Shown here piece by piece: positions 4,173 to 56,362 of a stretch of DNA of 64,000 bases; position 1 is the stretch's first letter, and each line of letters starts with the position of its first letter. The DNA comes from Candidatus Brocadiia bacterium. Its GTDB lineage: Bacteria > Planctomycetota > Brocadiia > CAIUPP01. A program made the translations under genes and the position numbers. The notes beneath the pieces were generated by a model. The model saw only the letters and a list, made by a program, of their open reading frames with translations. It was not told where the DNA came from and made no database searches. Location: the NCBI GenBank assembly GCA_050015075.1, contig JBEKCB010000018.1, forward strand, positions 20,461 to 84,460, written 5' to 3'.

Positions 4173-4185
4173 GGGGCATAATGAG

Positions 4186-4258
4186 TGGCGGGGGTGGGAG
4201 TCGAACCCACACTCTTGTCCTTATGAAGAACCTGCTTTATCCCTTAAGCTACCCCGCC
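4186..4258 (-). tRNA. tRNA-Met(CAT): tRNA-Met, anticodon CAT (elongator-type or tRNA-Ile2 precursor; CCA not encoded)
   Basis: 73 nt: GGCGGGG-TA-GCTT..AAGC-A-GGTTC-TTCATAA-GGACA-AGAGT-GTGGG-TTCGACT-CCCAC-CCCCGCC-A. It has a 7-bp acceptor stem, a GTTCGA T-loop and a CAT anticodon, and lacks the initiator-type 3xG:C anticodon stem. Confidence 0.8.
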
Positions 4259-20170: not shown

Positions 20171-20248
20171 GGCAAAACGAGCATTTCCCTTTCGTACAAT
20201 TCCTGGCACAGCAACGATTAATGATTCGCCCGCACAGCTAGCGGATTA

Positions 20249-21061: not shown

Positions 21062-22422
21062 GACGCGCCTCCAATCTTTAGGGCCAAGGCATAAAGGTAA
21101 GGAATCTCAAACGAATCAGATTGATTGACCGCCTTCCTGTCTTTTACGGCCACAGCACCAATCCTGACAAGATCGGATATGACCAACTTGGCGTCTAGAT
21201 CAGCCTTACCAAGAGCAGCAGATAGTTGCTTCCGGTTGAAAGTCCGCGAGTTGTGCCCGCTCAACTGTTTATATGTTTGGCTGTAGTTTGGAAAAACCTG
21301 AAGGAAATCGTTCAGCTTATCCGCAGCGGTAAGATCTATTGCCTGTCGAATTGCCTCAGCGGAAATCAAACACGTCGGCTTGTTTACACCCTGGCGGTTG
21401 AAAGTTAACTGCGATTTCTGAGCCTCGATGCAGAAATTTACAAAATCGCGCGGAAGTGCATCGCCATTTCCGTCCTTGAAGCGTTCATACAGCACTTCAA
21501 ACCCGCCCGCGTAAGGCTCTTCCCAATCGAAAACTTCATCGAGCCACTTTTGGGCAACGGGATAGATGATGTCGTCATTATGCTCTGGATGTAAGACAGC
21601 GAGACGGTGGGCGAGAAGAATCCCTATGTCCTCCTTAGTCCACTTCAAAGTCAATTTCAACGCGCTGAAATGGTCTTTGTTGACATAGCCGAGTTCGTCA
21701 TAAATGTCAGACCGGAAAAACAGCTTAAACTTCAATCTCCTGAGTCGTATCAAGTCGCTGACAGCCGTCATTAGGCTGCTGAGGAGCTCGGCGATTTCAT
21801 CTTCCTTACTGCCGTTCAGCCGGACCTCGTCCAGACTGTCGAGGCAAATCCACAAGTCTGCTCCTTGCTCATCCAACCATGAACTTGCCAGATGGATAAC
21901 CTGATCGCATTCCGTCATCGCAAGGGGTATCTTCGGCGGTATCTCTGTAGTCACATACTCACCGATCCCGACCTTGAACTTCAAAGTCCTCAACGACTGC
22001 CACGGCGTAGGAACTATCCCGACCAGTCCCCAACGCACTAAGAATCGCTCGAACGTCTTTCTTGTCGTCTCGGCCAGACGGTCTTCATTGATGAGAAGCC
22101 CCGCGATGAGTGACGCGATATGAAAACGCCATAACCCAACCTTCGATGATGAAACAGCCGGATGCAAAGTGGCCCAGTGTTGTTGAAGTTGCGGCTCTTC
22201 ACCGAGCCAAAGGTTCGGTTTCTTGAAAATCGGGATCTTGTCTTCCCACTCGCGCAACATTTGGTAAATGGCGCTTTTACCGGCGCCCTTTGCTCCGAGA
22301 ACGAGGTAAATCCTATCGGAGCATGTCAAATCAAAAGCAACCGACTTATAGAAATAGTGCTTCAGATTGGTATCATGCTGCGCAGCACCGAAGCCAAAAT
22401 CAATCTTTTCGAGTGCGTTCAT
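21058..22422 (-). CDS. P-loop NTPase with a NACHT-like Walker B motif (STAND-like ATPase), hypothetical
   Basis: 454 aa. Walker A LVLGAKGAGKSAIYQ at about residue 45; Walker B LWICLDSLDEV (hhhhD[GAS]hDE) at about residue 195. Low GC. ATGA overlaps with both neighbouring genes. Confidence 0.6.
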   Translation of the reverse strand: MNALEKIDFGFGAAQHDTNLKHYFYKSVAFDLTCSDRIYLVLGAKGAGKSAIYQMLREWEDKIPIFKKPNLWLGEEPQLQQHWATLHPAVSSSKVGLWRFHIASLIAGLLINEDRLAETTRKTFERFLVRWGLVGIVPTPWQSLRTLKFKVGIGEYVTTEIPPKIPLAMTECDQVIHLASSWLDEQGADLWICLDSLDEVRLNGSKEDEIAELLSSLMTAVSDLIRLRRLKFKLFFRSDIYDELGYVNKDHFSALKLTLKWTKEDIGILLAHRLAVLHPEHNDDIIYPVAQKWLDEVFDWEEPYAGGFEVLYERFKDGNGDALPRDFVNFCIEAQKSQLTFNRQGVNKPTCLISAEAIRQAIDLTAADKLNDFLQVFPNYSQTYKQLSGHNSRTFNRKQLSAALGKADLDAKLVISDLVRIGAVAVKDRKAVNQSDSFEIPYLYALALKIGGAS

Positions 22423-25227: not shown

Positions 25228-25667
25228 CGTTCCGCGCGCCTCCTCTATCACGAACTCAGGACGCCTGGATTCCCGCTTTCGCGGCAATGACGTAAGGTGT
25301 TTTCAGCACAGTGTTTGCTGCAAATTGGATTCGTTTTTTCAAATCGCATTTTCAGCTTCATATCCTTGCCTGCCAATAACTTACGGCATCTCGAGGCTTG
25401 GATTATACAATAAGTTTTCTGATATGTCAAGGGCCGCGCTGCTGTTTTAATGGTGCCATGCATACAGATTATAATCATAACAGATTATAGCTACGGTGCT
25501 TACGGCTTATCTCTCCGATAACAACGTTTCCGTTTTTCCGGTTTTCAGCCCTTCGGCCGTGAGAGGAGCCGAACGGGTCAGCGCCGAACGGCTGAAAACA
25601 ACCGACCAAGCATATTGCAGTCTAGCGGTTTTGCAAGAGGCGTTCAATGGGTGGCGGCCATCAATCC

Positions 25668-31828: not shown

Positions 31829-32829
31829 CCTCGCTTCCTGAGTTTCTTTTGCGCGGAGGCCATCTCGCGGAAGACCAGGGCGACGGCGTCGCGCGCGTCT
31901 TCCGCGGTGGCGGTCTCGGGCGCGCGGCCGGCTTTCAAGCAGTCCACGAAGTATTTCACCTCGTTGAAGTAACCGCCGAGGCTGCTGATGTTGCCGCCGG
32001 CCTGGACTTCTCCGGCCTTCACTTGGGGCACACTGACCAGCGCCGGGGGCTTGCCTTTTTCGTAACGGGCGAGCGGCTGACTCTTCGAGGAGTAGCTGAG
32101 CACGCCCTTCGCGAAGACGGCGCGGAAAGCCATCTCGAACGGCTCGGGTGCGTCGCACCAGCCGCCCTGGGCGGTGACGGCGACGGCCGGGTAGTGATAG
32201 TGCGTCGCGATCTGGTTCCACGCGCCGCCCTGGCACACGCCGACGCTGTCGAGGCCCTTCGGCTTGCCCAACAGGTACAGCGCGTAGTCCACGTCGTGGA
32301 TGTGCAGGTCGAGCGCGGCGCCGCCGCTGAGGGCCGGCTTGCGGAACCACCCTTTCCAGCCGACGGGCATTTCGCCGAAGCGCCGCATCTCGAGCGAGAC
32401 GAGCGGACCGAGCGTTTTCTGCTCGGTGTACTGCTTCAGGAGCTGATACTCCGGCCAGAAGCGGAGGACGTGGCCGACCATGAATTTGATTTTCGCGTCG
32501 CGGATGGCCTTGACCATGCGGTTGGCCTGGGCCGGATCGCGCGCGATGGGTTTTTCGCAAAGGCAATCCAGGCCGCGCTTTGCGGCAAGGAGCGCCGCCT
32601 CGCAATGCAGGTAGGTCGGCAGGCAGATGTCCACGAGGTCTACCGGCGCGCGGGTGATGAGTTCGCGCGCGGTGGAGAAGACGGCGGCGCCGTGTTTCGC
32701 GGCGAGCGGCTGCGCGTTCTCCGCCTGGTCATCGGCGATGGCGACGATTCGGACATCAGGGATCGCGGCGTAACAGGCCGCGTGCATTCTTCCCATGAAG
32801 CCGACGCCGCAGAGACCGACTTTGATCAT
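31825..32829 (-). CDS. Gfo/Idh/MocA family NAD(P)-dependent oxidoreductase
   Basis: MIKVGLCGVGFMGRMHA...EKP, a Rossmann fold followed by a GFO_IDH_MocA C-terminal domain. Confidence 0.8.
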   Translation of the reverse strand: MIKVGLCGVGFMGRMHAACYAAIPDVRIVAIADDQAENAQPLAAKHGAAVFSTARELITRAPVDLVDICLPTYLHCEAALLAAKRGLDCLCEKPIARDPAQANRMVKAIRDAKIKFMVGHVLRFWPEYQLLKQYTEQKTLGPLVSLEMRRFGEMPVGWKGWFRKPALSGGAALDLHIHDVDYALYLLGKPKGLDSVGVCQGGAWNQIATHYHYPAVAVTAQGGWCDAPEPFEMAFRAVFAKGVLSYSSKSQPLARYEKGKPPALVSVPQVKAGEVQAGGNISSLGGYFNEVKYFVDCLKAGRAPETATAEDARDAVALVFREMASAQKKLRKRG

Positions 32830-42408: not shown

Positions 42409-42672
42409 GTCCACCTCGGCGATGAAGAAAGCGCGAGATTCCACCGGCCGCGCTAACACTATACCGGTCTCGCGCGCGCGGTTCAATCGGTCTCGCGTCA
42501 TTCTCCGGCGCGCGAGGGTTAATAGCGCGTCAAGTTATTGACACACGGCGCCTAACCCGATAAACTCCTCCCGCATGCGTTGAAAGGCTCCCGCGGCCGC
42601 GGGCTTCCGCCTTCTCCACCGGGGACAAGACGGTTTCTTCGCCTGCCGACGGGTTCATTGCGTGGAGGCCTG

Positions 42673-43434
42673 ATGATGCCGAGCCGGACGCTCCTGGGAC
42701 CAGGTCAACGGAAGCAGACCGCGACTCGGGCGCTGGTCCTCTTTTCCGGCTTTTTCGGCGACGTGTCCAACTGGGCTGCGACGGTCGAGCGCTTCCAGGA
42801 GCGGTACCGCGTCCTGCCGATGGCGTTCCAGCTCTACCGGCGCGACGCCCCCTATCACACCGTGGCCAGCCTGACGCGCACGGTGTGCGAGGAGATGGAC
42901 CGGCTGGGCCTGGCGCAGGCGGTGCTCTTCGGGAACTCGATGGGCGGGCAGATCGCCCTGAACGTGGCGCTCGAGCAGCCGCATCGCGTGGCCGGGCTGG
43001 TGCTCACCGGCTCGGCGGGGCTGATGGAGCGGAACCTGGCCGAGTACCCGCCGCTGGACCCGCCGCGAGAATACATCCGCGGCAAAGTCGAGCAGGTCTT
43101 CTTCGATCCGCGCCACGCGACCGACCAGATCGTGGACGAGGTCCAGAGCATCCTCCGCGACAACCGCAACAAGCTGCGGCTGGTGAAGCTGGCGCGGTCG
43201 GTGCGCGAGTTCAACCTGCACGACCGCCTGCCGGCGATCACCGCGCCGACGCTGCTGGTGTGGGGAAAGCAGGACTCGATCACGCCGGTGGAGGTAGGAG
43301 AGATCTTCGCCCAGCGCCTGCCCCAGGCGCGGATGTTCGTGCTCGACCGCTGCGGCCACGCGCCGAACATCGAGCAGCCCGACGAGCTCAACCGCCTGGC
43401 CGATGAGTTCCTGGCCGAGATCGGATATGTATGA
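42673..43434 (+). CDS. alpha/beta hydrolase fold protein
   Basis: Nucleophile elbow GNSMGG; a catalytic Asp and His (DRCGH) near the C-terminus. Confidence 0.7.
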   Translation: MMPSRTLLGPGQRKQTATRALVLFSGFFGDVSNWAATVERFQERYRVLPMAFQLYRRDAPYHTVASLTRTVCEEMDRLGLAQAVLFGNSMGGQIALNVALEQPHRVAGLVLTGSAGLMERNLAEYPPLDPPREYIRGKVEQVFFDPRHATDQIVDEVQSILRDNRNKLRLVKLARSVREFNLHDRLPAITAPTLLVWGKQDSITPVEVGEIFAQRLPQARMFVLDRCGHAPNIEQPDELNRLADEFLAEIGYV

Positions 43435-44996
43435 GAGGCGTGATCGGTAAGGTCTTCCGGGGCCTGTCCGGTCCTCGGATGCGGACCGTCGCGGAATGGC
43501 AGCGCGACCCGGCGCCGACCCAGAAAGCCCTGCTCGACCACCTCGTCGGAACCGCCGCGCGGACGCGCTTCGGCGCCGAACACCATTTTGAATCCATCGG
43601 GTCCATCGCCGATTACCAGGCGCGCGTGCCGCTGAGGACCTACGCGGACTTCAAGCCGTACTGGGACCGCGTGTTCGAGGGCGAACGCGACGTCACCTGG
43701 CGGGGCCACCCGCGGTATTTCGCCGTCACCTCCGGCACGACCTCGATCGCCGCCGCGGGGAACAAGTACATCCCGGTCTCCGACGAAGGCATCCACAGCC
43801 AGATGCGCGTGGGCCGCGATATCCTCAACTTCTACTTCAACCACACGCACGACACGGACCTCTTCCGCGGGCGGTTCATGTTTCTCGCCGGCAGCACGGA
43901 GCTGAAGCGCCATCCGCACGGCATACTCACCGGCGACCTCAGCGGCATCATGGCGCTCGAGACGCCGCTCTACACCGGTTTCCTGCGCCTGCCCACCGGG
44001 CGGACGGCGGCCATCGCGGACTGGGAGCAGAAGCTCGACGCAGTCGCGCGCGAGGCCCACGCGGCCGACGTGCGCGGCATCGGCGGCACGCCCTCGTGGC
44101 TGATCTGCGTTTTCGAGCGCGTCCTGGAGCTGCGCCGCAAGGCCGGCCGCCCGGCGCGCACGCTGGCCGACGTCTGGCCGCACCTGTCGCTCCTCGTCCA
44201 CGGCGGCGTGAACTTTAGCCCCTACCGCGCCGCGTTCGAGGCGCTCTTCGGCAAGCCGGTGACCACGCTCGAAGTCTATCCCGCCTCCGAGGGATTCATC
44301 GGCGTCGAGGACGTGCCCGGCACGCAGGACCTGCTGCTGATGATGGACTCGGGGCTGTTCTACGAATTCATCCCGGCCGCGGAGGTCGGCGGCGCACCGC
44401 CGGCGCGGCGGACGGTCGCCGACGTGGAGACCGGCGTGGACTACGCCATCGCGCTCAGCACGAACAGCGGGCTGTGGAGCTACCTCGTCGGCGACACGGT
44501 CCGGTTCACCTCGCTGCGCCCGCACCGCCTGCGCGTCACCGGGCGGACGCAGCAGTTCCTCAGCGCCTTCGGCGAGCACCTGGTCGTCGAGGACGTCGAG
44601 ATCGCGATGGCCGCCGCCTGCCGTGCCGCCGGCGCGCAGGTGCAGGACTTCCACGTCGTGCCGGTCTATCCCATCTCTGATCCAGCGGGCAAGCCGGCCG
44701 GGACGGACATGCGCCCGCAGCATCAATGGCTCGTGGAATTTATCCAGCCGCCGGCCGACGCGGAGAAGTTCGGCGCGGCCCTCGACGACGCGCTGCGGCG
44801 GCAGAACGAGGACTACGCCGCGCACCGGCAGGGCGACGCCGGCATGCGCCCGCCGGAGGTCGTGGCGCTTCCGCCGAAGACGTTCTACCGCGCGATGAAG
44901 GAGATCGGCCGCTTCGGCCCGCAGAACAAAGCGCCGCGCCTCCGCAACGACCGCGAATTCGCCGAAGTTCTGCTCCGGAACGCCCAGGCCAGTTAA
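43431..44996 (+). CDS. GH3 family (auxin-responsive-promoter-like) acyl-acid amido synthetase / adenylating enzyme
   Basis: 521 aa with GH3-family conservation (YFAVTSGTTS, a YASSE-like PASEGFIGVED). ATGA overlap with the upstream hydrolase gene. Confidence 0.7.
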   Translation: MRGVIGKVFRGLSGPRMRTVAEWQRDPAPTQKALLDHLVGTAARTRFGAEHHFESIGSIADYQARVPLRTYADFKPYWDRVFEGERDVTWRGHPRYFAVTSGTTSIAAAGNKYIPVSDEGIHSQMRVGRDILNFYFNHTHDTDLFRGRFMFLAGSTELKRHPHGILTGDLSGIMALETPLYTGFLRLPTGRTAAIADWEQKLDAVAREAHAADVRGIGGTPSWLICVFERVLELRRKAGRPARTLADVWPHLSLLVHGGVNFSPYRAAFEALFGKPVTTLEVYPASEGFIGVEDVPGTQDLLLMMDSGLFYEFIPAAEVGGAPPARRTVADVETGVDYAIALSTNSGLWSYLVGDTVRFTSLRPHRLRVTGRTQQFLSAFGEHLVVEDVEIAMAAACRAAGAQVQDFHVVPVYPISDPAGKPAGTDMRPQHQWLVEFIQPPADAEKFGAALDDALRRQNEDYAAHRQGDAGMRPPEVVALPPKTFYRAMKEIGRFGPQNKAPRLRNDREFAEVLLRNAQAS

Positions 44997-45008: not shown

Positions 45009-47057
45009 ATGGTGAACGATTCTCAGGCAGACGCCGGACCGCAAACGGAGATCGTCGTCGGGACGGAACTCGATCTGCGGATCCTGCTGTTTTTGATCAT
45101 ACCGTTTTCATTGATGGTGCCTGTCCAATTCCTGCTTGGAGGCATCACCGACACGGTTTACATATCACTCTTTGAGTTCGCCGTCGTGCTCTTCGTTTTT
45201 CTCGGCTGCCGATATGCAGAGTCCCGCCGCGTGCTCTTCGATCGCGAGGGAATGACTTTTCTTGCGCGCGGCATCGGCCGCCTGCGCGCGCCTCCTTTCC
45301 ATTTCCGCTGGGACGAAGTCGCTGAAATCCGGCCCGCGATGCTCGGGACGATGCGGCTCCGCCTCAACCGCCCGCGGAAATTCTGGACGTTCCGTTCGCA
45401 GCCGAAGAATTCGATCTGGGTTCCCAAACGCATCCGGACTGAGCCACAGTTCACCGAGGCGCTTCGCACTTTCGTGCCGGCTGAGCGAATCCGTGCGGAA
45501 CTGGTATTCGACGAACGCCTTTCATGGTCTGCCCGGTATGGGTGGATTCTGGCGCCGGTCATGCTCCTCTGCGCTGCGGCGGCCGCGGGGTGCGGCTCAG
45601 TCGCGTTCCGCAGCCTGGAGTTCATGGTATTTCTCGCGAGGTGCGGTCTTGGGCTGGTCATCCTGGCGTTGGTCATGCTCCTTCGCCGGTCCGCTGACCG
45701 CGCGCGGCCCGCGCTCGTGGTGGTCGCGGGACTCCTGTTCACATTCACGCTTCTGATGTCGTCCACGGCAATGGCGGCGTTGTTGCTGCCCCGGGGTCTG
45801 AAGCTGGCCACCGGTTACTGGGGCGCGCTGGCCGGCGCGCTGATCGGCTCGGCGATTATGGTGATACACGGCAGGAAGCGCGGCGGATGGCGCTATGCCG
45901 GCGCGACTTTTCTTCTGGCTGCGGCCGGGTTCTGGTGCGGCTGGGCCGGCTTTCACGGGGTCGCCGCAACATGTCTGGGCACCGGATGGTTTTACCGGAG
46001 TCCTTGGACACCCAACGGCGAGGCTTTCCTGTGGACAGGGGTCGCTCATTCCGGGTCGCCTGAAAGGCAGTTGACGGTGCGCTGGTATTCCTCCGACTTG
46101 AAACTGGAACACCGGGCCGTCCTGCCTGTCGATGCGTTCCTTATCGCGGTCGGCCAGGAAGCGGCGCTTTTTTACGCCAACCGCAAGGAGGGCTCGCAAC
46201 TCTGGTTCGTTCCCAGGCACGCGGAAGCGCGAGTCATTGATACGGCGACATATTTCGGATACAGGAACATGATATCCCCCGATTGTCGGCACGCACTCAT
46301 CGCCGATTGGGACAGACGAGGCAATATTCTCGCCTGGAAAATCTGCGACCTTGAGACCGGCGCGGTCGAGCCGGTCAACTTTCCCGTGCCGCTGAGCGAG
46401 ACCACCGTGATCGCGCTGCGCGACGACGGAACGGTCCTATGGCTATCCGGCTCCGGGCCGCTGGACAAAGAGAATCGCCCGTGGCCGCGCGCTAATCCCG
46501 TGCCGGAGAGCGGCGAATTCCCGCATCCCGGCAAGCCGTACGTCGTCTGGTCATGGAAGATCAATTCCGCCGACGCCCCGGCGCGGCTCCATGCCGCCAA
46601 AACGCAGTGGGTTCATTGGGAACGGTCCGCTGAGCCCGGGCGGCTTTGCGTCTTGCGCGTCGCCGAAAGTCCGCCCGCGCGGACCGAGTACGTCGCGCTG
46701 GATTTCTCGCAGTCGCCGCCTGCCGAGACAACGATTTCAGAGGAGGAGTTCGACAGGACGTGGAGGCAGCCGCAGGACAGGTGCTTCGACGGACGCTTCG
46801 CGTTCGAGCCCAAAGATGCAGGCAGGTTCGCTCCCGGCTGGATTGTGGACACGAAGACCGGCCGGAAATTCGGCATGGTGTCGCGGGCTACGGCGTATAA
46901 CGACGCGTCCCTTTGGTGGTCGCCGGGCGCGCACAAGTTCCTGATGGAAGTCCCGGAATTCGTGCTTGCGGGCGGCCGGTGGCACTGGCGCCACATGTCC
47001 GAGGAGATGTTCGACACCGTCTTCGTCGTCTACTTCGTGGACATGGACCGCCAATAA
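45009..47057 (+). CDS. membrane protein, tandem paralog 1 (N-terminal bPH-like domain, multi-TM core, large C-terminal domain)
   Basis: 682 aa, with conserved blocks shared by all three paralogs: DREGMT(F/L)L, FRWDEV, RLNRPRKFW, WKICDLETG, VVYFVDMDRQ. Confidence 0.65.
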   Translation: MVNDSQADAGPQTEIVVGTELDLRILLFLIIPFSLMVPVQFLLGGITDTVYISLFEFAVVLFVFLGCRYAESRRVLFDREGMTFLARGIGRLRAPPFHFRWDEVAEIRPAMLGTMRLRLNRPRKFWTFRSQPKNSIWVPKRIRTEPQFTEALRTFVPAERIRAELVFDERLSWSARYGWILAPVMLLCAAAAAGCGSVAFRSLEFMVFLARCGLGLVILALVMLLRRSADRARPALVVVAGLLFTFTLLMSSTAMAALLLPRGLKLATGYWGALAGALIGSAIMVIHGRKRGGWRYAGATFLLAAAGFWCGWAGFHGVAATCLGTGWFYRSPWTPNGEAFLWTGVAHSGSPERQLTVRWYSSDLKLEHRAVLPVDAFLIAVGQEAALFYANRKEGSQLWFVPRHAEARVIDTATYFGYRNMISPDCRHALIADWDRRGNILAWKICDLETGAVEPVNFPVPLSETTVIALRDDGTVLWLSGSGPLDKENRPWPRANPVPESGEFPHPGKPYVVWSWKINSADAPARLHAAKTQWVHWERSAEPGRLCVLRVAESPPARTEYVALDFSQSPPAETTISEEEFDRTWRQPQDRCFDGRFAFEPKDAGRFAPGWIVDTKTGRKFGMVSRATAYNDASLWWSPGAHKFLMEVPEFVLAGGRWHWRHMSEEMFDTVFVVYFVDMDRQ

Positions 47058-47101
47058 CGCCGCGGCATCGCAATTACCGCACCGGTTAAAGAGGTTGGGC
47101 C

Positions 47102-49126
47102 ATGGTGAATGGTTCAAGCGCAGACGCCGGACCTCAGACGGAGATCGCCGCCAGGACGCGACTCGATCTACGGAGCGTGCTGCCTTTTATCATAGCGTTT
47201 GCGTTGACGGTATCTGTCGATTTCCTGATTTTGGGCGTCCGCAGCGCGGTTTTCCTGTCGCTCATGGGCATCGCCGTCGCGTGTTGCTTTCTATTCGGCG
47301 TCCGATATGCAGAGCTGCGCCGTGCGCTCTTTGATCGCGAGGGAATGACGTTGCTTCCACGCGGCATCGGCCGCCTGAGCGCGCGTCCGCAGCATTTTCG
47401 CTGGGACGAGGTCGTCGAAGTCCGGCGGATGCCGTTCGGGACGATGCGGCTCCGCCTCAACCGCCCGCGGAAATTCTGGGCGTTCTTTTCGCAGTCGAAG
47501 AATTCAGTCGTGGTCCCCCAACGCATCTGGACGGAGCCGCGATTCGCCGAGGCGCTTCGCACCTTCGTGCCGGCTGAGCGCATCCATGCGGAACTGGCAT
47601 TCGACGAATGCCTTTCTTTCCCGGTGCGATACGCCTGGGTCCTGATGCTGGTGCTCTTCCTTTGCGCTGCGGCGGCCGCAGGGTGCAGCTTCGTCGCTTT
47701 CCGCAGCGCGGGTCTCCCGAGGTCAATCCTCGACCTGTTAATCCTGGCGGTGGCCATGGTCCTTTGCACGGATAGTGCGCGGCCCGCGTTCAGGGTGGTC
47801 GCGGGTTTCCTGTTTACATTCGTGTTTCTGGCGGCGTTCACCATAATTGTAGCGTTTTCGTTTCCCCACGCTCTGAAGCTGATCGCCGGTTACTGGGGCG
47901 CGCTGGCCGGCGCGCTGATCGGCGCGGCGGTCATGGTGATGAACGGCAGGAAGTCCCGCGCAGGATTCTGCGCCGGCGCGACTTTTCTTCTGGCCGCGGC
48001 CGGGTTCTGGTGCGGATGGGCCGGCTTTCCCCAGGTCGCCGGGATACGCCTGGGCGCAGGAGAGGTGGATTATCGCAGTGCCTGGACGCCCAACGGCGAC
48101 GGGTTCCTGTTGACGGAGGACGATTCTTCCGGGGCGGTCGGGCGGCCGAAGACGGTGTGCTGGTATTCATCCGATGCGAAACTGGAACGCCGGAGCGTCC
48201 TGCCCGCCGGTGCGAGCCTTCTCGCAGTCGGCCGGGAAGCGGCGTTCTTCAAGGCCGGCGAGTCGCACGATCAACTCTGGTTCGTGCCGAGACGCGCGGA
48301 GCCGCGAGTCATTAACGAGGCGCCCTACTTCATCAATGTCAGCACGTCGCCCGATGTTCGGCACGCACTCATGGCAGATCGGGACAGGCGAGGCAAAATC
48401 CTCGCCTGGAAAATCTGCGACCTTGATACCGGCAAGGTCGAGCCGGTCAACCTTCCCATGCCGGTGAGTGAGGTTGACTTGATTGCGCTCCACGACGACC
48501 TGACGGCTCTATGGCTGCGCGGCTCGCTGGCGATGGACAAAGGGAATCTCAAGGTGAGCCGCCACGTTCCGGTGCCCGAGAGCGGCGACTTCCAGGTTCC
48601 CGGCAAGCCGTACGTCGTCTGGTCGTGGAAGGTCAATTCCGCCGACTCGCCTGTGAAAGTCTGCGCCGCCAAAACGCAGTGGCTCGATTGGAGGCCCTCG
48701 GACGAGCCCGGGCGAATTCGCGTCTGCCGTGTCTCCGAAAACCCGCCCGCGCGGGTCGAGTACGTCGAGCTGGATTTCACGCAGTCGCTTCCTGCGGAGG
48801 CAACGATCTCCGAGGAGGAGTTCGTCACGACGTGGACGCCGCGGCCGGCCAGCTCCTTTGACGGACGGTTCGCGTTTGAGATCGGCGGTGGCAGATTCGC
48901 TCCCGCATGGATTGTGGACACGAAGGCCGGCAGGAAATTCGGCATGCAGTTGCAAGCAGTGATACTTGGCACGGTGCCTCTTTGGTGGTCGCCGAAGGCG
49001 CACAAGTGCTTGATGGAAATCCCGGAAGTGAAGCTGACGGGCGGGCGTTGGCACTGGCGCCGCGGTTCCGAGGGGATGTTCGATGCCGCCATGGTCGTCT
49101 ACTTCGTAGACATGGACCGTCAATAG
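47102..49126 (+). CDS. membrane protein, tandem paralog 2
   Basis: 674 aa, collinear with paralog 1 (estimated 55-65% identity), and the same C-terminus VVYFVDMDRQ. Confidence 0.65.
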   Translation: MVNGSSADAGPQTEIAARTRLDLRSVLPFIIAFALTVSVDFLILGVRSAVFLSLMGIAVACCFLFGVRYAELRRALFDREGMTLLPRGIGRLSARPQHFRWDEVVEVRRMPFGTMRLRLNRPRKFWAFFSQSKNSVVVPQRIWTEPRFAEALRTFVPAERIHAELAFDECLSFPVRYAWVLMLVLFLCAAAAAGCSFVAFRSAGLPRSILDLLILAVAMVLCTDSARPAFRVVAGFLFTFVFLAAFTIIVAFSFPHALKLIAGYWGALAGALIGAAVMVMNGRKSRAGFCAGATFLLAAAGFWCGWAGFPQVAGIRLGAGEVDYRSAWTPNGDGFLLTEDDSSGAVGRPKTVCWYSSDAKLERRSVLPAGASLLAVGREAAFFKAGESHDQLWFVPRRAEPRVINEAPYFINVSTSPDVRHALMADRDRRGKILAWKICDLDTGKVEPVNLPMPVSEVDLIALHDDLTALWLRGSLAMDKGNLKVSRHVPVPESGDFQVPGKPYVVWSWKVNSADSPVKVCAAKTQWLDWRPSDEPGRIRVCRVSENPPARVEYVELDFTQSLPAEATISEEEFVTTWTPRPASSFDGRFAFEIGGGRFAPAWIVDTKAGRKFGMQLQAVILGTVPLWWSPKAHKCLMEIPEVKLTGGRWHWRRGSEGMFDAAMVVYFVDMDRQ

Positions 49127-49163
49127 CGCCGCGGCATCGCAACGACCGCGCCGGCTAAAGGGG

Positions 49164-51227
49164 TTGGACATGATGAACGATTCTCAGGCGAACGCCGGCT
49201 CGCAGACGGAGATCGTCGCTGGGACGGAATCCAAGCTGGCGGCCGCGTTGCCTATGATCATACCATTTGCGTTCTGCGTCCTTTTGGAATTCGTGACTTT
49301 GGGCATTTGGGGCGTGGTCTGCCTGCTGCTCATTGGCATTGCCGTAGGGGCCGATGCTCTTTACTCGGCCCGATATAGAATGCCTCGCCGGGCGCTCCTT
49401 GATCGCGAGGGAATGACGTTGCTTCCGCTGGAGACCGGCCGCTTCAGCGGGCGTCCGCTGCATTTTCGCTGGGACGAGGTGCTCGAAGTCCGGCGCGCAT
49501 CGCGCTGGAAAGGCTGCGCGTTGCAAGTGCGCCTGGACCGCCCGCGGAAATTCTGGACGTTCAGTCCGCAGCGGCAGGATTTGATCTCGGTCCCCCGAGG
49601 CGTCTGTGCGAACCCGCAGTTTGCCGAGGCGATCCGCGCTCACGTCCCGGCTGAGCGGATCCATGGGGAACTGGCCTGCGACGAACGCCTTTCCTTATCA
49701 GCCCGATACCGGTGGGTCTTGGTTTTAGTGATGCTCGCCTGCGCCGCCATGACCGCAGGGTGCAGCTTCGCTATTATTCGCGGCGAGAATTTCCTGGCGG
49801 CCCTTTTGGCGGCGGTCATCGCACTGATGATCGGAGCGATGGCCATGGCGTTTTGCGCCAGCCATGCGCCCAGGGCATTCGGACTGATCGCAGGGATCTT
49901 CAATACGTTCGCCTTTCTCTCGCTTACAGGCCCTTTCATGCCATTTTTCTTCCCGAGCGGCCTGGCGCTGATCGCCGCTGGCCTGGGCGCCGCGGCCGGT
50001 ACGTTGGCCGGTGCGGCGATCATGGTGATCAAAGGCAGGAAGGCCGGCGGATGGGGCTACGCCGGCGCGACTTTTGTTCTGGCCGCGGCCGGGTTCTGGT
50101 GCGCGTGGACAAGCTTTCACCAGATCAGCGAGATACGCGTGGACGCCGGCAGCCTTGACATTCGCAGCCCGTGGACGCCCAAGGGCGATGCTTTCTGGAT
50201 AACGGAGGGCGATTCTTTCGCCTCACCCGATGAGCCGGCCTCGGTGTGCTGGTATTCGCGCGACTTAAAACTGGAACGCCGCGCCGTCCTGCCCGGCCAT
50301 GCGCACACTCTCGCGGTCGGCGAGGATGCGGCGCTCCTCTGCGTCAAGGGCCAGCCGGATGACCAGCTCTGGCTCGTCCCCAGGAACGCGGAACCGCGAG
50401 TCGTTGACGAGGCGCCGTACTTCGGGAACGGCGCTGTTATATCGCCCGATTCTCGTCATGCTCTCGTTTCCATTTGGGGTACGGAGCGTGAACCGGTTGC
50501 GTGGAAAGTCTATGACCTTGAGACCGGCGAGGTGGAGACCGTGAACTTCCCCGTGCCGCTGAAAGAGGTTTCCCCGATCACGCTCCGCGACGACGGAACG
50601 GTCCTATGGCTGTCCGGCTCGCGGCCGCTGGACAAGGGGAATTACCCGACGACCCACCTTACCCCGCTGCCCGAGAGCGGCGAGTTCCCGCATCCCGGCA
50701 AACCGTTCGTCGTCTGGGCGTGGAAGATCAATTCCGTCGATGCGCCCGCGAAGCTCTACGCCGCCGGGACCCAGTGGCTTGAATGGCGCCGGCCGGACAA
50801 GTCCCAGCGGCTTTACGTCTGCCGCGTCTCAGAGAATCCGCCTGCGCGGGTCGAGTGCGTCACGCTCGATTTCGCGCAGTCGCCGCCCGCCCAGACAACG
50901 ATATCGCAAGATGAGTTCGAGTTCCACCAGCCCTGGATGCCCCGGACGCGCTCCTTTGACGGACGTTTTGCGTTCGCGGCTGCCGAACGCGGCTTCTTCG
51001 CCCCGGCGTTCATCGTGGACACGAAGACCGGCAGAAAATTCCGCTTGCCGGCTCCGGCAATGCCGTTCGGCCCGTCGTACGTTCATTGGTCGCCGAGCGA
51101 GAACAAATTCTTGATCGAGGTCACGCAATCCAAGCTCCCGGCCGGACTCTGGCGCTGGCGCCGGGACACTGAGAAGACCTTAGAGCCCGCCACCGTCGTT
51201 TACTTCGTGGACATGGACCGTCAATAA
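49164..51227 (+). CDS. membrane protein, tandem paralog 3
   Basis: 687 aa, collinear with paralogs 1 and 2, with the same N-terminal and C-terminal blocks. Confidence 0.65.
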   Translation: MDMMNDSQANAGSQTEIVAGTESKLAAALPMIIPFAFCVLLEFVTLGIWGVVCLLLIGIAVGADALYSARYRMPRRALLDREGMTLLPLETGRFSGRPLHFRWDEVLEVRRASRWKGCALQVRLDRPRKFWTFSPQRQDLISVPRGVCANPQFAEAIRAHVPAERIHGELACDERLSLSARYRWVLVLVMLACAAMTAGCSFAIIRGENFLAALLAAVIALMIGAMAMAFCASHAPRAFGLIAGIFNTFAFLSLTGPFMPFFFPSGLALIAAGLGAAAGTLAGAAIMVIKGRKAGGWGYAGATFVLAAAGFWCAWTSFHQISEIRVDAGSLDIRSPWTPKGDAFWITEGDSFASPDEPASVCWYSRDLKLERRAVLPGHAHTLAVGEDAALLCVKGQPDDQLWLVPRNAEPRVVDEAPYFGNGAVISPDSRHALVSIWGTEREPVAWKVYDLETGEVETVNFPVPLKEVSPITLRDDGTVLWLSGSRPLDKGNYPTTHLTPLPESGEFPHPGKPFVVWAWKINSVDAPAKLYAAGTQWLEWRRPDKSQRLYVCRVSENPPARVECVTLDFAQSPPAQTTISQDEFEFHQPWMPRTRSFDGRFAFAAAERGFFAPAFIVDTKTGRKFRLPAPAMPFGPSYVHWSPSENKFLIEVTQSKLPAGLWRWRRDTEKTLEPATVVYFVDMDRQ

Positions 51228-53836
51228 CGCCGCGCTTTTCGGGCGAGCAGCCCGCCGAGCGCCGCCAGCCAGCCGGCCGCCGCGATGATGGAAATCCACA
51301 ACCCGATCCGGAAGCCTCGCGGCGCGTACTCCATCAGGATCTTGTGATGGCCCGCCTGCAGCGGCACCGCGCGCAGGCAGTAGTTCGCGGGCATGATCTC
51401 GTAGTGCGACTGCGGGCCGGCCTCCAGCGGCCGCGCGCGCCAGCCGGCGGAATAGTCGTCGGTCACCAGCAGGATCGCCGGCCGCTCCGTCTCCGCTTCG
51501 ATGACCAGGTAGTCCGTGCCCGATTCCACCACCGCCGCGTAGCCCGGCTTGCTCGCCGGCGCGGGCTCCGGGTCCGGCCGCGACTCGAGGATCACCTGGC
51601 GGCTCGGATCGAAGCGCACGTCAATCAGCGCGGCGAAGATGTCGTCGCGCTTCGTCAGAAGCACGTAGTCCCGCATCAGCGCGACGTGCGGCAGGATGTC
51701 GTGCACCTCCGCCGGGATGGCCGGCAGAATGCTGTACTGGCAGCGGAGCATTTTGTAAATCGGCAGATACAGGCGGAACGGCAGCGAAGGCTCCGCCACG
51801 TCCGGGTCTATGCCCTGCGTGAACCACATGAAGCGCCCGTAGCGCTCGGGCACCAGCGGGCCATATCCCCAGATGTCGTATCCGCCGGCCGCCATGACGA
51901 AATCGCCCTCGGCCGGCTGCAGGACGCGGAAGTCGCCGGGGTGGCCCTGGAAGAAATCCTTGAGGCCGAACGCTCTCTTCGAGAGATCGAACGACGTCCT
52001 CAGCGACCCGGCGAAGAGGAGCATCTCGCCCATGCCGAGGACCGCCAGGCAGAGGCCGAGTTTCCGCGGCGATTTGAGGAAGAGCAGGCAGATTCCGGCG
52101 ACCACGCACGGGCCGGCCGCCCACAGCAGCGATTGGCCCGCATGGACCTGGGCCTGTCGCGCGAACGCGGGATCGTTGTACAGCCTGTTGTACATGTGAA
52201 TTTCCGGCGTGTCGCGGACGTCGCGCATGATCCGCCACCACCAGGGCGCCGGTTCCGTCGGCCCGACCGACACCGCCATTCCCGCGCCGAGGCCGATCAG
52301 CAGCGCCGCCAGTACCAGCGGCGCCGCCGCCAGGCGCACGTTGAACTTCTCCGCGCGCAGGAGCCGGTCCAGCCCGATGCCCGAAAGCAGCACCAGGAAC
52401 GCCGTGGCCGGCACGGCGAATTTCGACATGCCGCGGAACCGGTTGAACCCCGGCGCCCAATCGTAAAGGAGGCGGAAAAGCCGCACGTCGAAAAGCGGCG
52501 TGAACCACCACAGAGCCAGCACCGCCGATAGCAGAAGGACCAGCGCCGTCCGGATGAACAGCCGCAGCCGAGGCCTGTCCGCGGCCGCCCTCCAGAACCT
52601 CAGCAGAAGGACCACGCCGATGAGCGAAGGGAAAAGCCCCGTCACCACCGGCGGCAGCCAGGCTCCGAGCGCGAGCACCAGCAGCACCAGCACCATCGCG
52701 AGCGAGAACCGCCGCTTCGCGCGCTCGCCGGCGACGGCCCCGTAAATCGCCAGCAGCAGGCCGGTGAGGCCGATGAACAGGCACATCTCCCACACGAAGC
52801 ACCGGCCCCAGTACCGGAAAAAGGCCGTCTCGGTCTCCGGCCCGAAGAAGCCCGGCGCCAGGAAGGTCAGGAAATTCTCCGGCGGCAGCCAGAACACGCG
52901 GGCGAAATCGTACGGCACGCCGTGCCCGCCGCGAAGGCTCTCGCCGGTCGTCTCCATGCCCGAGAGGATCTGCACGGCCGCGATCGCGGCGCCGACGGCG
53001 CATATCGCCGCGAGCCCCGCCAGGATCCGCGCCCGGTTCACGGACCTCACCCAGCAGAGCGCCGAATAGATCGCCGCGGCCACGCCGACGTGGAAGAGAT
53101 ACTGCGGGTCGCCGCCGAGGGCCATCATCGCAATCGTCAGCGAGCCCAGCAGAATCCATTTGGAGTGCAAAGTGCGGAGTACGGACTCGTCCGCCGAAGC
53201 CTTGGCGAAGGCGGAGTGCGGAATGAAAGAGGCGTTCGCGTCCTCGAAAAGGCCGTCCAGCGTAAGGAACAGCAACGGGATCCACGCCGTCGAGATCAGG
53301 CCGGTCAGGTGCCCCGCCATGATATGGTAATAGTGCTGCCCGCAGAACATCCACAGCACGCCGCAGAACAGGCAGGCCAGGAACCGCAGCCCGCGCCGGC
53401 TCGCCCACAGGTACATGAACAGGCCGCCCAGGAACACGTGCAGCGCCACGCCGGTGTTGATCGCCCGGGCCAGCGGCAGGAAGAGGTACGGCCAATTCAG
53501 CGGATAGAGCAGGCCCGTCTGCGCCCCGCCGAAGAACGGCGCGCCGGAAAAGATGTGCGGGTTCCACAGGGGGAAATTCCCGTGGCGCAACTGCGAGAAG
53601 CCGAAGTCCCGCCACGGCGCGTATTGCAGGCAGATGTCGGTGCGCGCTTCGGAGACGACCCGGTCGCCGGTCGCGAAGAGCACGTCGCCGAAGATCACCA
53701 GCACAAAGGCCAGCAGGATTGCGGCGGCGAGCCACGTGCGCCGCGGGCGCTCGGCCCGCGCCTCAGCGGCGGCTGCCTCGGCGCGGCCGGATTGCGCATC
53801 AGGAGCCGTGCCCGGCTTTTTTCTCTTTGAGCTCAT
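51221..53836 (-). CDS. YfhO family membrane protein (putative glycosyltransferase-like, large polytopic)
   Basis: Start MSSKRKKPG with a GGAAGGA RBS. YfhO-like N-terminal region (NPHIFSGAPFFGGAQTGLLYPLNWPYLFLP) and many TM helices. Confidence 0.65.
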   Translation of the reverse strand: MSSKRKKPGTAPDAQSGRAEAAAAEARAERPRRTWLAAAILLAFVLVIFGDVLFATGDRVVSEARTDICLQYAPWRDFGFSQLRHGNFPLWNPHIFSGAPFFGGAQTGLLYPLNWPYLFLPLARAINTGVALHVFLGGLFMYLWASRRGLRFLACLFCGVLWMFCGQHYYHIMAGHLTGLISTAWIPLLFLTLDGLFEDANASFIPHSAFAKASADESVLRTLHSKWILLGSLTIAMMALGGDPQYLFHVGVAAAIYSALCWVRSVNRARILAGLAAICAVGAAIAAVQILSGMETTGESLRGGHGVPYDFARVFWLPPENFLTFLAPGFFGPETETAFFRYWGRCFVWEMCLFIGLTGLLLAIYGAVAGERAKRRFSLAMVLVLLVLALGAWLPPVVTGLFPSLIGVVLLLRFWRAAADRPRLRLFIRTALVLLLSAVLALWWFTPLFDVRLFRLLYDWAPGFNRFRGMSKFAVPATAFLVLLSGIGLDRLLRAEKFNVRLAAAPLVLAALLIGLGAGMAVSVGPTEPAPWWWRIMRDVRDTPEIHMYNRLYNDPAFARQAQVHAGQSLLWAAGPCVVAGICLLFLKSPRKLGLCLAVLGMGEMLLFAGSLRTSFDLSKRAFGLKDFFQGHPGDFRVLQPAEGDFVMAAGGYDIWGYGPLVPERYGRFMWFTQGIDPDVAEPSLPFRLYLPIYKMLRCQYSILPAIPAEVHDILPHVALMRDYVLLTKRDDIFAALIDVRFDPSRQVILESRPDPEPAPASKPGYAAVVESGTDYLVIEAETERPAILLVTDDYSAGWRARPLEAGPQSHYEIMPANYCLRAVPLQAGHHKILMEYAPRGFRIGLWISIIAAAGWLAALGGLLARKARRY

Positions 53837-53922
53837 TGCGGCCCTGCGGTCCTTCCGACAGGAGGCGCCTCTTCCCTCGGCGGGATTATCCGCCATTGCG
53901 GCGGCGCGTGTCAACGAGGCGC

Positions 53923-53959
53923 TTGACGCTCAGCCCGCGACGCGATATAATTCGTTATA
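53923..53959 (+). promoter_or_regulatory. sigma70-type promoter (TTGACG-N17-TATAAT) with an overlapping ATATAA-ttcg-TTATAT inverted repeat (putative ArsR operator) upstream of arsR
   Basis: cttgacgctcagcccgcgacgcgatataattcgttatat. An AGGAG RBS lies 7 nt before the arsR ATG. Confidence 0.6.
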
Positions 53960-53981: not shown

Positions 53982-54344
53982 ATGAAGGAGTTCATGGCGG
54001 TCACGAAGGCGCTGGCCGACGACAACCGGACGCGGGCGCTGATGTGCCTGCGCGACGGCGAACTGTGCGTCTGCCAGATCATCGAGCTGCTGCAGCTCGC
54101 GCCCTCGACGGTCTCGAAGCACTTGAATATCCTGCACCGGGCCGGGCTGCTCGAGTCGCGCAAGGAGGGGCGCTGGATCTATTACCGGCTCGCCGGCCCG
54201 GACGCGCCGGAGGCCGCGCGCGAGGCGCTGCGCTGGGTCCGCCAGTCGCTCGCGAAAGACCCGCAGATCGCCCGCGACGCCGCCCGGCTCAAAGCGATCC
54301 GCAAGATGGACGTGCGGCAACTGTGTGAACGGTATCGTAGTTAG
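53982..54344 (+). CDS. arsR: ArsR/SmtB family metalloregulatory transcriptional repressor
   Basis: LCVCQIIELLQLAPSTVSKHLNILHRAGLL, with an ELCVCQI metal-binding site. Confidence 0.8.
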   Translation: MKEFMAVTKALADDNRTRALMCLRDGELCVCQIIELLQLAPSTVSKHLNILHRAGLLESRKEGRWIYYRLAGPDAPEAAREALRWVRQSLAKDPQIARDAARLKAIRKMDVRQLCERYRS

Positions 54345-54364
54345 TCGCTGCCGTGGAGAGAGTT

Positions 54365-55231
54365 ATGGCGAAGACGCTCAAGGTCCTGTTCCTGTGCACG
54401 GGCAATTCCTGCCGAAGCCAGATGGCCGAGGGCTGGGCGCGACGCCTCAAAGGCGACGTGATCGAGGCTTGGTCCGCCGGCATCGAAACCCACGGGCTGA
54501 ACCCGCTGGCGGTGAAGGCGATGGCCGAGGCCGGAGTGGACATCTCGCGCCAGCGCTCGAAGAGCGTGGCCGAAGTGAAGGACGTGCCTTTCGACTACGT
54601 GGTGACCGTCTGCGACCACGCGCACGAGAGCTGCCCGCTGTTTCCGGGCAAGGCGAAGATCGTCCACGTGGGATTCGACGATCCGCCGCGCCTCGCCAGG
54701 GACGCCAGGACCGAAGAGGAGGCGCTGGGACATTACCGGCGCGTCCGGGATGAGATCCGCGCGTACGTCGAGCGCATTCCGGAGGCATTGACCGGCGCGG
54801 GCTGGAATCACAAGGCGCGCGTGCTCTTCTTATGTACAGGCAATTCCGCGCGCAGCCAGATGGCCGAGGCCTTCCTGCGCAAGTACGGCGGAGACCGCTT
54901 TGAACCGCACAGCGCGGGGTTGGACCCGCGGCCCATCCACCCATTGGCGGTGCGCGTGATGCAGGAGGCCGGGATAGACATCCGCCGGCAGCGCTCGAAA
55001 AGCGTGCGCGAGTACCTGGGCAAGATGCATTTTCACCACCTGATCGTCGTGTGCGAGCAAGCCGACCGCAACTGTCCGACGACCTTCCCCGGCATCGGCG
55101 GCCGGCTGTTCTGGCCCTTTGAAGACCCCGCCTCATTCGCCGGCGCCGACGACGAAAAGCTGGCCAGGTTCCGTGAAGTCCGCGACCGGATCGAGGCTCG
55201 CATCAGGGAGTGGATCAAGAGCCAGCCATGA
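54365..55231 (+). CDS. arsC: tandem-fused arsenate reductase (two LMW-PTP / thioredoxin-coupled ArsC domains)
   Basis: Two repeats, each with a CTGNS(C/A)RSQMAE P-loop and a C-X6-C pair (CDHAHESCP / CEQADRNCP). Confidence 0.8.
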   Translation: MAKTLKVLFLCTGNSCRSQMAEGWARRLKGDVIEAWSAGIETHGLNPLAVKAMAEAGVDISRQRSKSVAEVKDVPFDYVVTVCDHAHESCPLFPGKAKIVHVGFDDPPRLARDARTEEEALGHYRRVRDEIRAYVERIPEALTGAGWNHKARVLFLCTGNSARSQMAEAFLRKYGGDRFEPHSAGLDPRPIHPLAVRVMQEAGIDIRRQRSKSVREYLGKMHFHHLIVVCEQADRNCPTTFPGIGGRLFWPFEDPASFAGADDEKLARFREVRDRIEARIREWIKSQP

Positions 55232-55255: not shown

Positions 55256-56362
55256 ATGAATGAAAGCCTCGCAAGGCGTTTGTCGTTTCTCGACCGGTAC
55301 CTGACGCTCTGGATTTTCCTGGCCATGGCGGCGGGCGTACTGCTGGGATATCTCGCGCCGGGCGTCGGCGACTGGATCGGCTCGCTTCGCCCCGCCGGCA
55401 CGCAGACGAGCATCCCCATCGCCGTCGGCCTCATCCTGATGATGTACCCGCCGCTGGCGAAGGTGAAGTACGAGGAACTCGGCGACGTCTTCCGCAATTA
55501 CAAGGTGCTGGGCCTGTCGCTGCTCCAGAACTGGGTCATCGGCCCGGTCCTGATGTTCGGCCTGGCCGTGCTGTTCCTGCGCGGGCGGCCGGAGTTCATG
55601 ATCGGCCTGATTATGATCGGCCTTGCCCGCTGCATCGCGATGGTGATCGTGTGGAACGACCTGGCCAAAGGGGACGCCGAATACGCCGCCGGGCTGGTGG
55701 CGTTCAACTCCATCTTCCAGGTGTTTTTCTACAGCGTGTATGCATGGTTTTTCATCACCGTCCTGCCGCCGATGCTCGGACTGAAAGGGGCCGACACCTC
55801 GGCCATCACCATCGGGCAGATCGCGCGGAGCGTGTTCATCTACCTGGGCATTCCGTTCCTGGCCGGCATGATCACGCGCGCGGTCCTGGTGAAGCTCAAG
55901 GGCAAGGAGTGGTACCATGGCGCCTTCATTCCGAAGATCAGCCCGATCACGCTGGTGGCGCTGCTGTTCACGATTGTGGTAATGTTCTCCATGCAGGGCC
56001 GGAAGATTATCGCGCGGCCGCTTGACGTGGTGCTGATCGCCGTGCCGCTGCTGATCTACTTCGTCGTGATGTTCCTGGCGAGCTTCTGGATGAGCCGGAA
56101 GGTCGGCGCGAATTACGCGCAGAGCGCCACGCTGTCGTTCACGGCGGCCAGCAATAACTTCGAGCTGGCCATCGCGGTGGCCGTCGGGGTGTTCGGCATC
56201 AACCACGGGGCCGCATTCGCCGCGGTCATCGGCCCGCTGGTGGAAGTGCCGGCGCTGATCGGCCTGGTGAATGTCAGCCTGTGGCTCAAGAGGAAGTGGT
56301 TCGCCGGCGAGCCGGCCGAGGTCGCGCCCGGCTGCGCCGTCGGCGGGCGCTCAGCGCAATAA
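55256..56362 (+). CDS. acr3: arsenite efflux transporter ACR3 family
   Basis: 368 aa with 10 TM helices and ACR3/ArsB-like conservation ([31 protein letters not shown]). Confidence 0.85.

Follow-up and report, generated by a model that had tools for sequence, protein, structure and literature searches.

The question raised by the locus described here is what kind of protein is encoded by three genes, termed X1, X2 and X3, that follow one another as co-directional open reading frames (ORFs) on the + strand of the window, by which the whole analysed stretch of 64 kb from a Candidatus Brocadiia bacterium is meant, and what the multiplication of this gene signifies. The first paralog, X1 (45009..47057, 682 aa), begins 12 nt past the stop codon of a GH3-family gene and is succeeded by X2 (47102..49126, 674 aa) and by the most divergent paralog, X3 (49170..51227, 685 aa from the ATG at 49170). 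A previous interpretation of this DNA made from its letters, here called the sequence-only reading, had described three paralogous genes in tandem, which is borne out by end-to-end alignments with few gaps and identities of 64% (X1-X2), 53% (X1-X3) and 54% (X2-X3). Equally, every shared motif quoted in that reading is found in X1-X3 and its borders for X1 and X2 stand, whereas its start of X3, a TTG at 49164 (49164-51227, 687 aa), is replaced by the ATG at 49170, more probably the true start because it is aligned with the ATG codons of X1 and X2. The alternative considered there, that the similarity might be confined to low-complexity transmembrane (TM) segments, does not hold, as the hydrophobic segments show the lowest identity (33-44% in the TM hairpin) and the soluble domains a higher one. 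No further X copy was detected by tblastn within the 64-kb window.

Public databases contain X2 already: P0001, a protein from a 'Candidatus Brocadiia bacterium' metagenome-assembled genome (MAG), is 100% identical to X2 over 95% of the query. This NCBI model of 640 aa leaves out 47102-47203, as its start lies 34 codons after the ATG at 47102. It is probably too short, because the N-terminal 34 residues of X2 (MVNxSxAxAGPQTEIV...) are conserved in at least 13 homologs.

Domain architecture and proposed role

Structure prediction, hydropathy analysis and profile comparison together resolve this unannotated family into a predicted cytoplasmic PH-fold domain, an anchor of seven TM helices and a predicted periplasmic TolB-type propeller. 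In an AlphaFold2 model of X2 built from 16 homologs (mean predicted local distance difference test (pLDDT) 73, in the C-terminal domain 80-92), a short N-terminal tail is followed by two TM helices (residues 23-44 and 46-70), a small domain (72-155) of six strands with a final helix, five core helices (178-198, 205-223, 228-253, 257-281 and 287-307) and an all-beta domain (315-670) of about 27 strands, consistent with about seven four-stranded blades. On the DNA, always on the + strand, these parts correspond to a hairpin of TM1 and TM2 (residues 23-70, 47168..47311), a basic PH-superfold domain with the motifs DREGMTLL, HFRWDEV, RLNRPRKFW and VPAERI (residues 71-160, 47312..47581), the five Gly/Ala-rich helices TM3-TM7 (residues 178-307, 47633..48022) and a beta-propeller of the PD40/TolB type (residues 308-674, 48023..49123), with whose last strand, VVYFVDMDRQ, the protein ends (VYFVDMDRQ-stop). 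A hydropathy scan of X1-X3 shows the same 2+5 hydrophobic segments with peaks at the predicted helices, so that seven TM helices take the place of the six counted in the sequence-only reading.

The orientation of these parts is suggested by the distribution of charge. Lys and Arg are concentrated in residues 71-177 of X2 (20 residues) and in the loops 224-227 and 282-286, the alternate loops being nearly free of them, which under the positive-inside rule would place the PH-fold domain in the cytoplasm and the C-terminal propeller in the periplasm. The PH-like domain is strongly basic in 16 of the 16 members examined, with a net charge of +4 to +15 over about 93 residues. An N-terminal domain resembling bPH and a C-terminal beta-rich, perhaps periplasmic part had both been proposed from the letters of the DNA. 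The first proposal survives as to the PH superfold but not as to its position, as the domain is inserted between TM2 and TM3 rather than lying N-terminal to the core, nor as to a Pfam bPH match; the second agrees well with an all-beta propeller of about 360 aa that is predicted to be periplasmic by the positive-inside rule. In X1-X3 none of the Pfam families bPH_1 to bPH_6 is matched, and the best bPH match in a Pfam scan of the family, bPH_6 in 1 of 30 members, has E=0.44. A transitive link was also considered and rejected: short proteins that match the N-terminal module alone show no bPH match.

The fold of the propeller can be traced both by structure and by profile. Foldseek retrieves prolyl oligopeptidase, TolB, S9 peptidases and WD40 proteins with a best E of about 7e-6, including TolB 7mx5_A at E=9e-6. 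A profile of the close family finds no match among PDB sequences, and TolB is reached only with the wider profile of 30 family members, which matches TolB chains at E=7e-7 in two or three repeat stretches and by which the blades can be assigned to the PD40 type. Repeat motifs such as WTPxGD, SPDxRH and WSP are recognisable, and the sole recurrent Pfam match among the 30 members is a sub-threshold PD40 in 3 of them (E of 0.023 or above).

Searches of X1-X3 against Pfam, NCBIfam, PADLOC and PHROGs returned nothing significant, in line with the sequence-only reading, in which the family was not recognised, and no description of a PH-TM-propeller architecture was found in the searchable literature. 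The family is a new, previously unannotated combination of known folds. It is small: X homologs occupy 14 clusters among 5.8 billion sequences, a second word-indexed search, started from the family alignment, yielded these 14 proteins again, and a profile search of all 1.84 billion representatives gave 58 proteins at E up to 1e-3, 26 of them at E up to 1e-30. About 25 of the 58 are full length (650-726 aa) and match almost the entire profile, hence the architecture as a whole is conserved. All 58 proteins are without an assigned name and the few with a stated source come from Planctomycetota MAGs; no relative was found in 185,579 species-representative genomes of GTDB.

What is conserved within the family is of a structural kind. 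Invariant or nearly invariant family-wide are W101, W328, W354, G301, T329, P330, G332, F335, G377, A381, S416, W527, G610, S630, P631 and L637, that is W, G, P, T and F together with the Ser of SPD-type repeats, and a family-wide conserved catalytic constellation (Ser/His/Asp or Cys) is not among them. Judged by the ratio of nonsynonymous to synonymous change (dN/dS, or pN/pS for proportions), no segment of the X protein is under more constraint than TM7 (AGATFLLAAAGFWCGWAGF); constraint is strongest in TM7, the first propeller element and the core of the PH domain, with cold spots in TM7 (0.23), the PH helix (0.34), residues 436-455 (0.37) and residues 496-525 (0.35-0.41). The least constrained segments are TM1-2 and TM4-5 with ratios near or above 1, dN/dS of the TM hairpin being at or above 1. 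The best conservation thus falls on TM7, on the PWTPxGDAF element at the membrane exit and on the PH core, elements by which the parts are joined, a pattern suggestive of a mechanical link through the membrane.

Because no catalytic or transport signature is present, because TolB-type propellers serve as interaction platforms and because the joining elements are the best conserved ones, we favour the reading that X is a non-enzymatic, membrane-anchored protein of periplasmic binding and coupling, with a probability of about 0.45 and hence somewhat short of even odds. Its propeller would bind a protein or a glycan of the periplasm or envelope; TM7 and the adjoining PWTPxGDAF element would form a rigid connection between propeller and membrane bundle; and the basic PH-like domain might dock on anionic lipids of the inner leaflet or on a cytoplasmic partner. 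Duplication followed by rapid divergence could then produce a small repertoire of variants that differ in binding specificity.

Several considerations weigh against such a role. Binding and coupling are deduced from predicted folds, and PH-like folds and propellers occur in enzymes and transport accessories too. The AlphaFold2 models are of moderate confidence outside the propeller (pLDDT 55-80 in the PH and TM parts) and the alignments comprise 13-16 sequences. Furthermore, pooled over 11 X genes, pN/pS is alike in the strands (0.61) and the loops (0.59) of the propeller and in no propeller segment exceeds 1, an evenness that fits a general relaxation of constraint as well as it fits diversification of a binding surface.

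The array, its slot and its neighbours

How the array arose can be read from the two spacers. Spacer 1 (47058..47101, +) contains about 10 nt of X 3' flank, degenerate remains of the 3' end of GH3 and the Shine-Dalgarno-like AAAGAGG, and spacer 2 (49127..49169, +) contains a GH3-derived 13-mer and a Shine-Dalgarno-like AAAGGGG. The conservation of the intergenic regions, as previously noticed, is evident in an identity of about 84% between the two, or 84-86% when the spacer between the two X copies of a related locus (L006, 9954-10000) is included. Both spacers open with the approximately 10 nt that are also found after the X3 stop codon (TAACGCCGCG), their middle resembles the GH3 3' end upstream of X1, and they close with the Shine-Dalgarno-like AAAG(A/G)GG, from which the ATG is about 8-10 nt away. 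In the 64 kb of the window there are just two exact occurrences of the 13-mer CGCAACGACCGCG, one at 44943-44955 in the last codons of the GH3 gene and the other at 49138-49150 in spacer 2. As the spacers carry X flank and GH3 relic and the L006 spacer is homologous to those of the window, the array arose by tandem duplication of a unit that reaches from the last approximately 50 nt of GH3 to a point about 10 nt beyond the stop of X, and one ancestral junction underlies the arrays of both the window and L006. Sliding nucleotide identity between the copies reaches at most 0.89 without near-identical tracts, so that recent gene conversion is rejected. The spacers are more alike than the adjoining genes are at their synonymous sites (pS 0.28-0.41), for which constraint or a younger coalescence are candidate causes; the spacers also contain the palindrome CCGCGG, and an RNA structure in them is unsupported (z-scores 0.39, 0.58 and -1.55).

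The triplication has been regarded as kept as an array, which does not extend to the relatives, as these hold one, two or three copies. There is one X copy in L001-L005, L007 and L009-L011, two are found in L006, at least two in L008 and three in the window. The first L006 copy is the ortholog of X1 (77%) and the second, P0014, the ortholog of X3 (78-80%), the single copy of L010 is an X1 ortholog (86%), and neither L006 with its two-copy array nor L010 has a counterpart of X2. A neighbour-joining tree joins X3 to P0014, P0009 and P0010, and X1 and X2 to P0002, P0004 and P0005. Since orthologs and tree grouping separate an X1 from an X3 lineage, the sequences place the X1/X3 split before the divergence of these species, with lineages gained and lost since. 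At the L006 locus (contig_95209, 1-21308) most genes, including both X copies, GH3 and the YfhO-like gene introduced below, are fragmented by frameshifts, which looks like long-read assembly error and not like pseudogenisation; P0014 (435 aa) is a fragment from this frameshifted locus.

In close relatives the slot itself is fixed and consists of alanine racemase, UDP-glucose dehydrogenase (minus strand), an alpha/beta-hydrolase, GH3, X and a convergent YfhO-like gene of about 900 codons. In the window the alpha/beta-hydrolase gene (42580-43434, +, identified by Pfam) overlaps the GH3 gene (43431-44996, +, equally by Pfam), which lies directly upstream of X1, by 4 nt, and a promoter scan finds the sole strong promoter-like site of this stretch at 42538-42566 upstream of the hydrolase gene; hydrolase, GH3 and the X array may therefore form one operon. 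On the other side a convergent gene (51221..53914, minus strand) encodes a polytopic membrane protein of 897 aa, possibly GT-C-like, whose matches to YfhO and PTPS_related are weak (Pfam E about 3-5e-4) and fall short of the curated cut-off. Its stop overlaps that of X3 by 7 nt (51221-51227), an overlap that is also seen in L001 and L004 and is absent in L005 and L007.

This arrangement allows X to be seen in another light, as an accessory subunit of an envelope modification encoded by its neighbours, namely the hydrolase, a GH3 adenylating enzyme, the YfhO-like protein of GT-C type, UDP-glucose dehydrogenase and alanine racemase, with the propeller holding a periplasmic substrate or polymer. 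The order hydrolase-GH3-X with convergent YfhO-like gene is found again in every close relative whose flanks extend far enough, L001-L007 and L010, and in L011 except for the hydrolase; the short distance between GH3 and X1, the promoter-like site upstream of the hydrolase gene and the common stop overlap in the window, L001 and L004 equally speak for functional association. However, the relatives are close, with flanks 77-97% identical, and a common order may be mere inheritance. A YfhO-like gene adjoins X in close relatives only, and the six distant members (18-41% identity) are single copies in unrelated contexts, next to TPR and DUF6655 genes (L013), purine biosynthesis genes (L014), a dehydrogenase operon (L015), HtrA- and PDZ-type proteins (L016/L017), an LRR/PQQ-propeller protein (L018) or a DUF4136 protein (L019). 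GH3, hydrolase and YfhO-like genes are missing from the surroundings of all six, so that the neighbourhood observed in the window is not family-wide. In addition, the hydrolase is missing in L011, two unrelated genes intervene between X and the YfhO-like gene in L005, and the YfhO assignment stays under the Pfam threshold. An accessory role in envelope modification is consequently considered unlikely.

Individual loci show further particularities. In L011 (8106-8423) the alpha/beta-hydrolase gene found elsewhere between UDP-glucose dehydrogenase and GH3 is absent, the order being otherwise kept. The two genes between X and the YfhO-like gene in L005 (12145-13156) encode a protein of 148 aa without Pfam match and a 195-aa Polbeta/NTP_transf_2 nucleotidyltransferase; they look like a toxin-antitoxin-type pair, and their presence suggests that the 3' edge of the X slot tolerates insertions. 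The convergent 998-aa neighbour of L015 was considered as a counterpart of the 897-aa gene of the window and proved unrelated, and the PD40-like gene upstream in L018 was rejected as an X paralog.

Beyond the slot the window contains an arsenic-resistance cluster with ArsR (53982-54344), a fused double arsenate reductase of the low-molecular-weight phosphatase type (54353-55231) and an ACR3/SBF-family transporter (55256-56362), preceded by promoter-like sites in both directions at 53885-53951; the ArsR, arsenate reductase and ACR3 cluster is next to the slot in most relatives but not in L001. A low-GC island at 20001-22422 (GC 0.507 compared to about 0.65 elsewhere) has probably been horizontally acquired and harbours two minus-strand ORFs without Pfam match that overlap by 4 nt (20249-21061, 270 aa; 21058-22422, 454 aa), adjoined by a 798-aa FG-GAP repeat protein at 22891-25287 on the minus strand. 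ARAGORN reports a tRNA-Asn (gtt) at 32733-32808, whereas at gathering threshold the Rfam tRNA model gives a single tRNA, the tRNA-Met at 4185-4258, besides which the Rfam scan of the window yielded nothing.

Rate of change and the number of copies

The low identity between the copies had been taken in the sequence-only reading as a sign of an old triplication, an estimate that is revised by the synonymous divergence. By the Nei-Gojobori method (NG86), which is rough at 65% GC and reliable only as a contrast with identically computed flanks, dN, dS and dN/dS are 0.25, 0.35 and 0.71 for X1-X2, 0.35, 0.59 and 0.60 for X1-X3 and 0.34, 0.53 and 0.65 for X2-X3. The copies have a low identity mainly because their proteins change fast (dN/dS about 0.6-0.7), dS being only 0.35-0.59. 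Between the window and its relatives the flanking genes have dS of 0.13-0.41 and dN/dS of 0.07-0.47 (ACR3 about 0.08, UDP-glucose dehydrogenase about 0.2, GH3 0.23-0.47, YfhO-like 0.28-0.47), X in the same genomes dS of 0.33-1.2 and dN/dS of 0.36-0.81, and amino-acid identity between genomes is 77-97% for the flanks and 45-64% for X, with 86% for its closest ortholog. The dS between copies is about 1.3-3 times that of flanking genes between the window genome and its relatives; the copies are only moderately older than the species splits and the array is fast-evolving, not very old.

Rapid change in a variable array invites the thought of a conflict protein, an immunity factor or decoy against phage or against toxins that act in the periplasm, whose diverged arrays would widen protection in the course of an arms race. 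Diverged copies in tandem are a typical feature of immunity genes, dN/dS of X is high relative to all neighbours, one to three copies occupy one chromosomal slot with different lineages kept per genome, and in L005 a gene pair of nucleotidyltransferase type has been inserted at the edge of the locus. Yet the propeller is without a local hot spot of pN/pS >1, the GC of the array (0.63-0.67) is similar to that of the remainder of the window, and in none of the loci examined is X flanked by genes of toxins, secretion systems or mobile elements. Equally, PADLOC and PHROGs give no match for X1-X3, no family among the PADLOC-DB defence models being reached even at E up to 1, and no homologs were found on phages or plasmids. 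A part in conflict is, taken together, rather improbable.

On the other hand, the extra copies might be redundant duplicates that drift under relaxed constraint, in which case the array would add nothing to the function of a single copy. This would explain why dN/dS of about 0.6-0.7 extends over all domains, raised in every one of them and equal in strands and loops, and it conforms with the sufficiency of one copy in most relatives. However, the ORFs are intact in the three copies of the window and in 11 of 11 X genes examined as DNA, over 667-685 codons (about 680) at 65% GC and with all family-conserved motifs kept; single-copy orthologs have a similarly high dN/dS of 0.36-0.68; and L006 retains orthologs of both X1 and X3. 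Because all these genes are intact and single-copy orthologs are equally fast, it follows that the X genes are maintained and that the family as such evolves fast, independently of redundancy after duplication. Drift of superfluous copies is thus as improbable an explanation as conflict.

That X is itself an enzyme or transporter, be it an S9/prolyl-oligopeptidase-type peptidase, a membrane-bound PQQ dehydrogenase or a small-multidrug-resistance (SMR)-like transporter, is very improbable, although the propeller has S9 peptidase propellers among its best structural matches, the succession of five TM helices and a periplasmic propeller resembles that of membrane glucose dehydrogenase, and X1 has faint SMR matches (E 0.03-0.4), as the protein ends at the propeller without an alpha/beta-hydrolase catalytic domain, PQQ, peptidase and SMR families are insignificant in all 30 members (with no PQQ family at E up to 1), Ser/His/Asp, Cys or charged residues of TM helices are not conserved family-wide and the TM core structurally matches only generic helical bundles.

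The reading of X as a periplasmic binding and coupling protein can be carried further, to a class of rapidly diversifying envelope receptors of Planctomycetota in which the specificity of the propeller is renewed by birth and death of genes, a conserved TM helix couples it to a lipid- or partner-binding PH domain, recognition serves in phage or toxin conflicts or is directed to variable environmental or envelope polymers, and the arrays are receptor repertoires; in this extended form we regard it as unlikely. The structural annotation of X is solid, and the most interesting feature of the locus is the fast-changing and copy-variable occupant of a conserved slot. The slot has a fixed place among well-conserved housekeeping genes, from which X stands out by its variable number of copies and by a protein divergence several times faster than that of all its surroundings. 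In Planctomycetota, a phylum with unusual envelopes, a very large proportion of the genes is unannotated, and to our knowledge systems of envelope recognition or conflict are almost unknown. If the propeller proves to be a receptor that determines specificity, the locus would be a marker of envelope recognition or conflict in this phylum; if it does not, X would be a lineage-specific membrane family, and the yield would consist mainly of a domain annotation and a corrected gene start.

Comparison with known systems

Membrane proteins with bPH domains of the YdbS/YdbT type, among them DdE and DdF of the enterocin DD14 locus with bPH_2 domains, have been implicated in the export of leaderless bacteriocins (PMC8657885). 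As in YdbS/YdbT, a TM hairpin in X directly precedes a small PH-fold domain on the predicted cytoplasmic side (AlphaFold2 strands from residue 72) and the protein is polytopic and without a catalytic domain; as in bPH_2 proteins, the PH superfold comprises an antiparallel sheet and a C-terminal capping helix. Unlike YdbS/YdbT, X fails to match the Pfam bPH models and has, besides its single PH-like domain, another five TM helices and an extensive propeller in the periplasm as predicted, and in contrast to the enterocin DD14 locus no bacteriocin or ABC-transporter genes are located near X.

Regarding the propeller, X shares with TolB the PD40-type repeats and the predicted periplasmic location. 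TolB, however, is a soluble protein with a signal peptide, an N-terminal alpha/beta domain and a place in the tol-pal operon, and its propeller has six blades, whereas X is a seven-TM protein with a PH-like domain, its neighbours are GH3, alpha/beta-hydrolase and YfhO-like genes instead of tol-pal genes and its propeller has probably seven blades by strand count. The best overall structural matches are the propellers of S9 peptidases (prolyl oligopeptidase, acylaminoacyl peptidase and DPP-IV), from which X differs by lacking the C-terminal alpha/beta-hydrolase domain and conserved catalytic residues (the Ser-Asp-His triad); from membrane-bound PQQ-dependent dehydrogenases it differs by the lack of PQQ-repeat signatures.

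In PknD, with its NHL propeller, and in hybrid two-component sensors with Reg_prop propellers, an extracytoplasmic propeller is joined through the membrane to a cytoplasmic domain. Unlike these proteins, X has no kinase, helix-turn-helix or other recognisable output but a PH-like domain of about 90 aa, and it spans the membrane with seven helices compared to one or two. With PknD and the Reg_prop sensors X nevertheless has in common the general plan of a propeller outside and a module inside.

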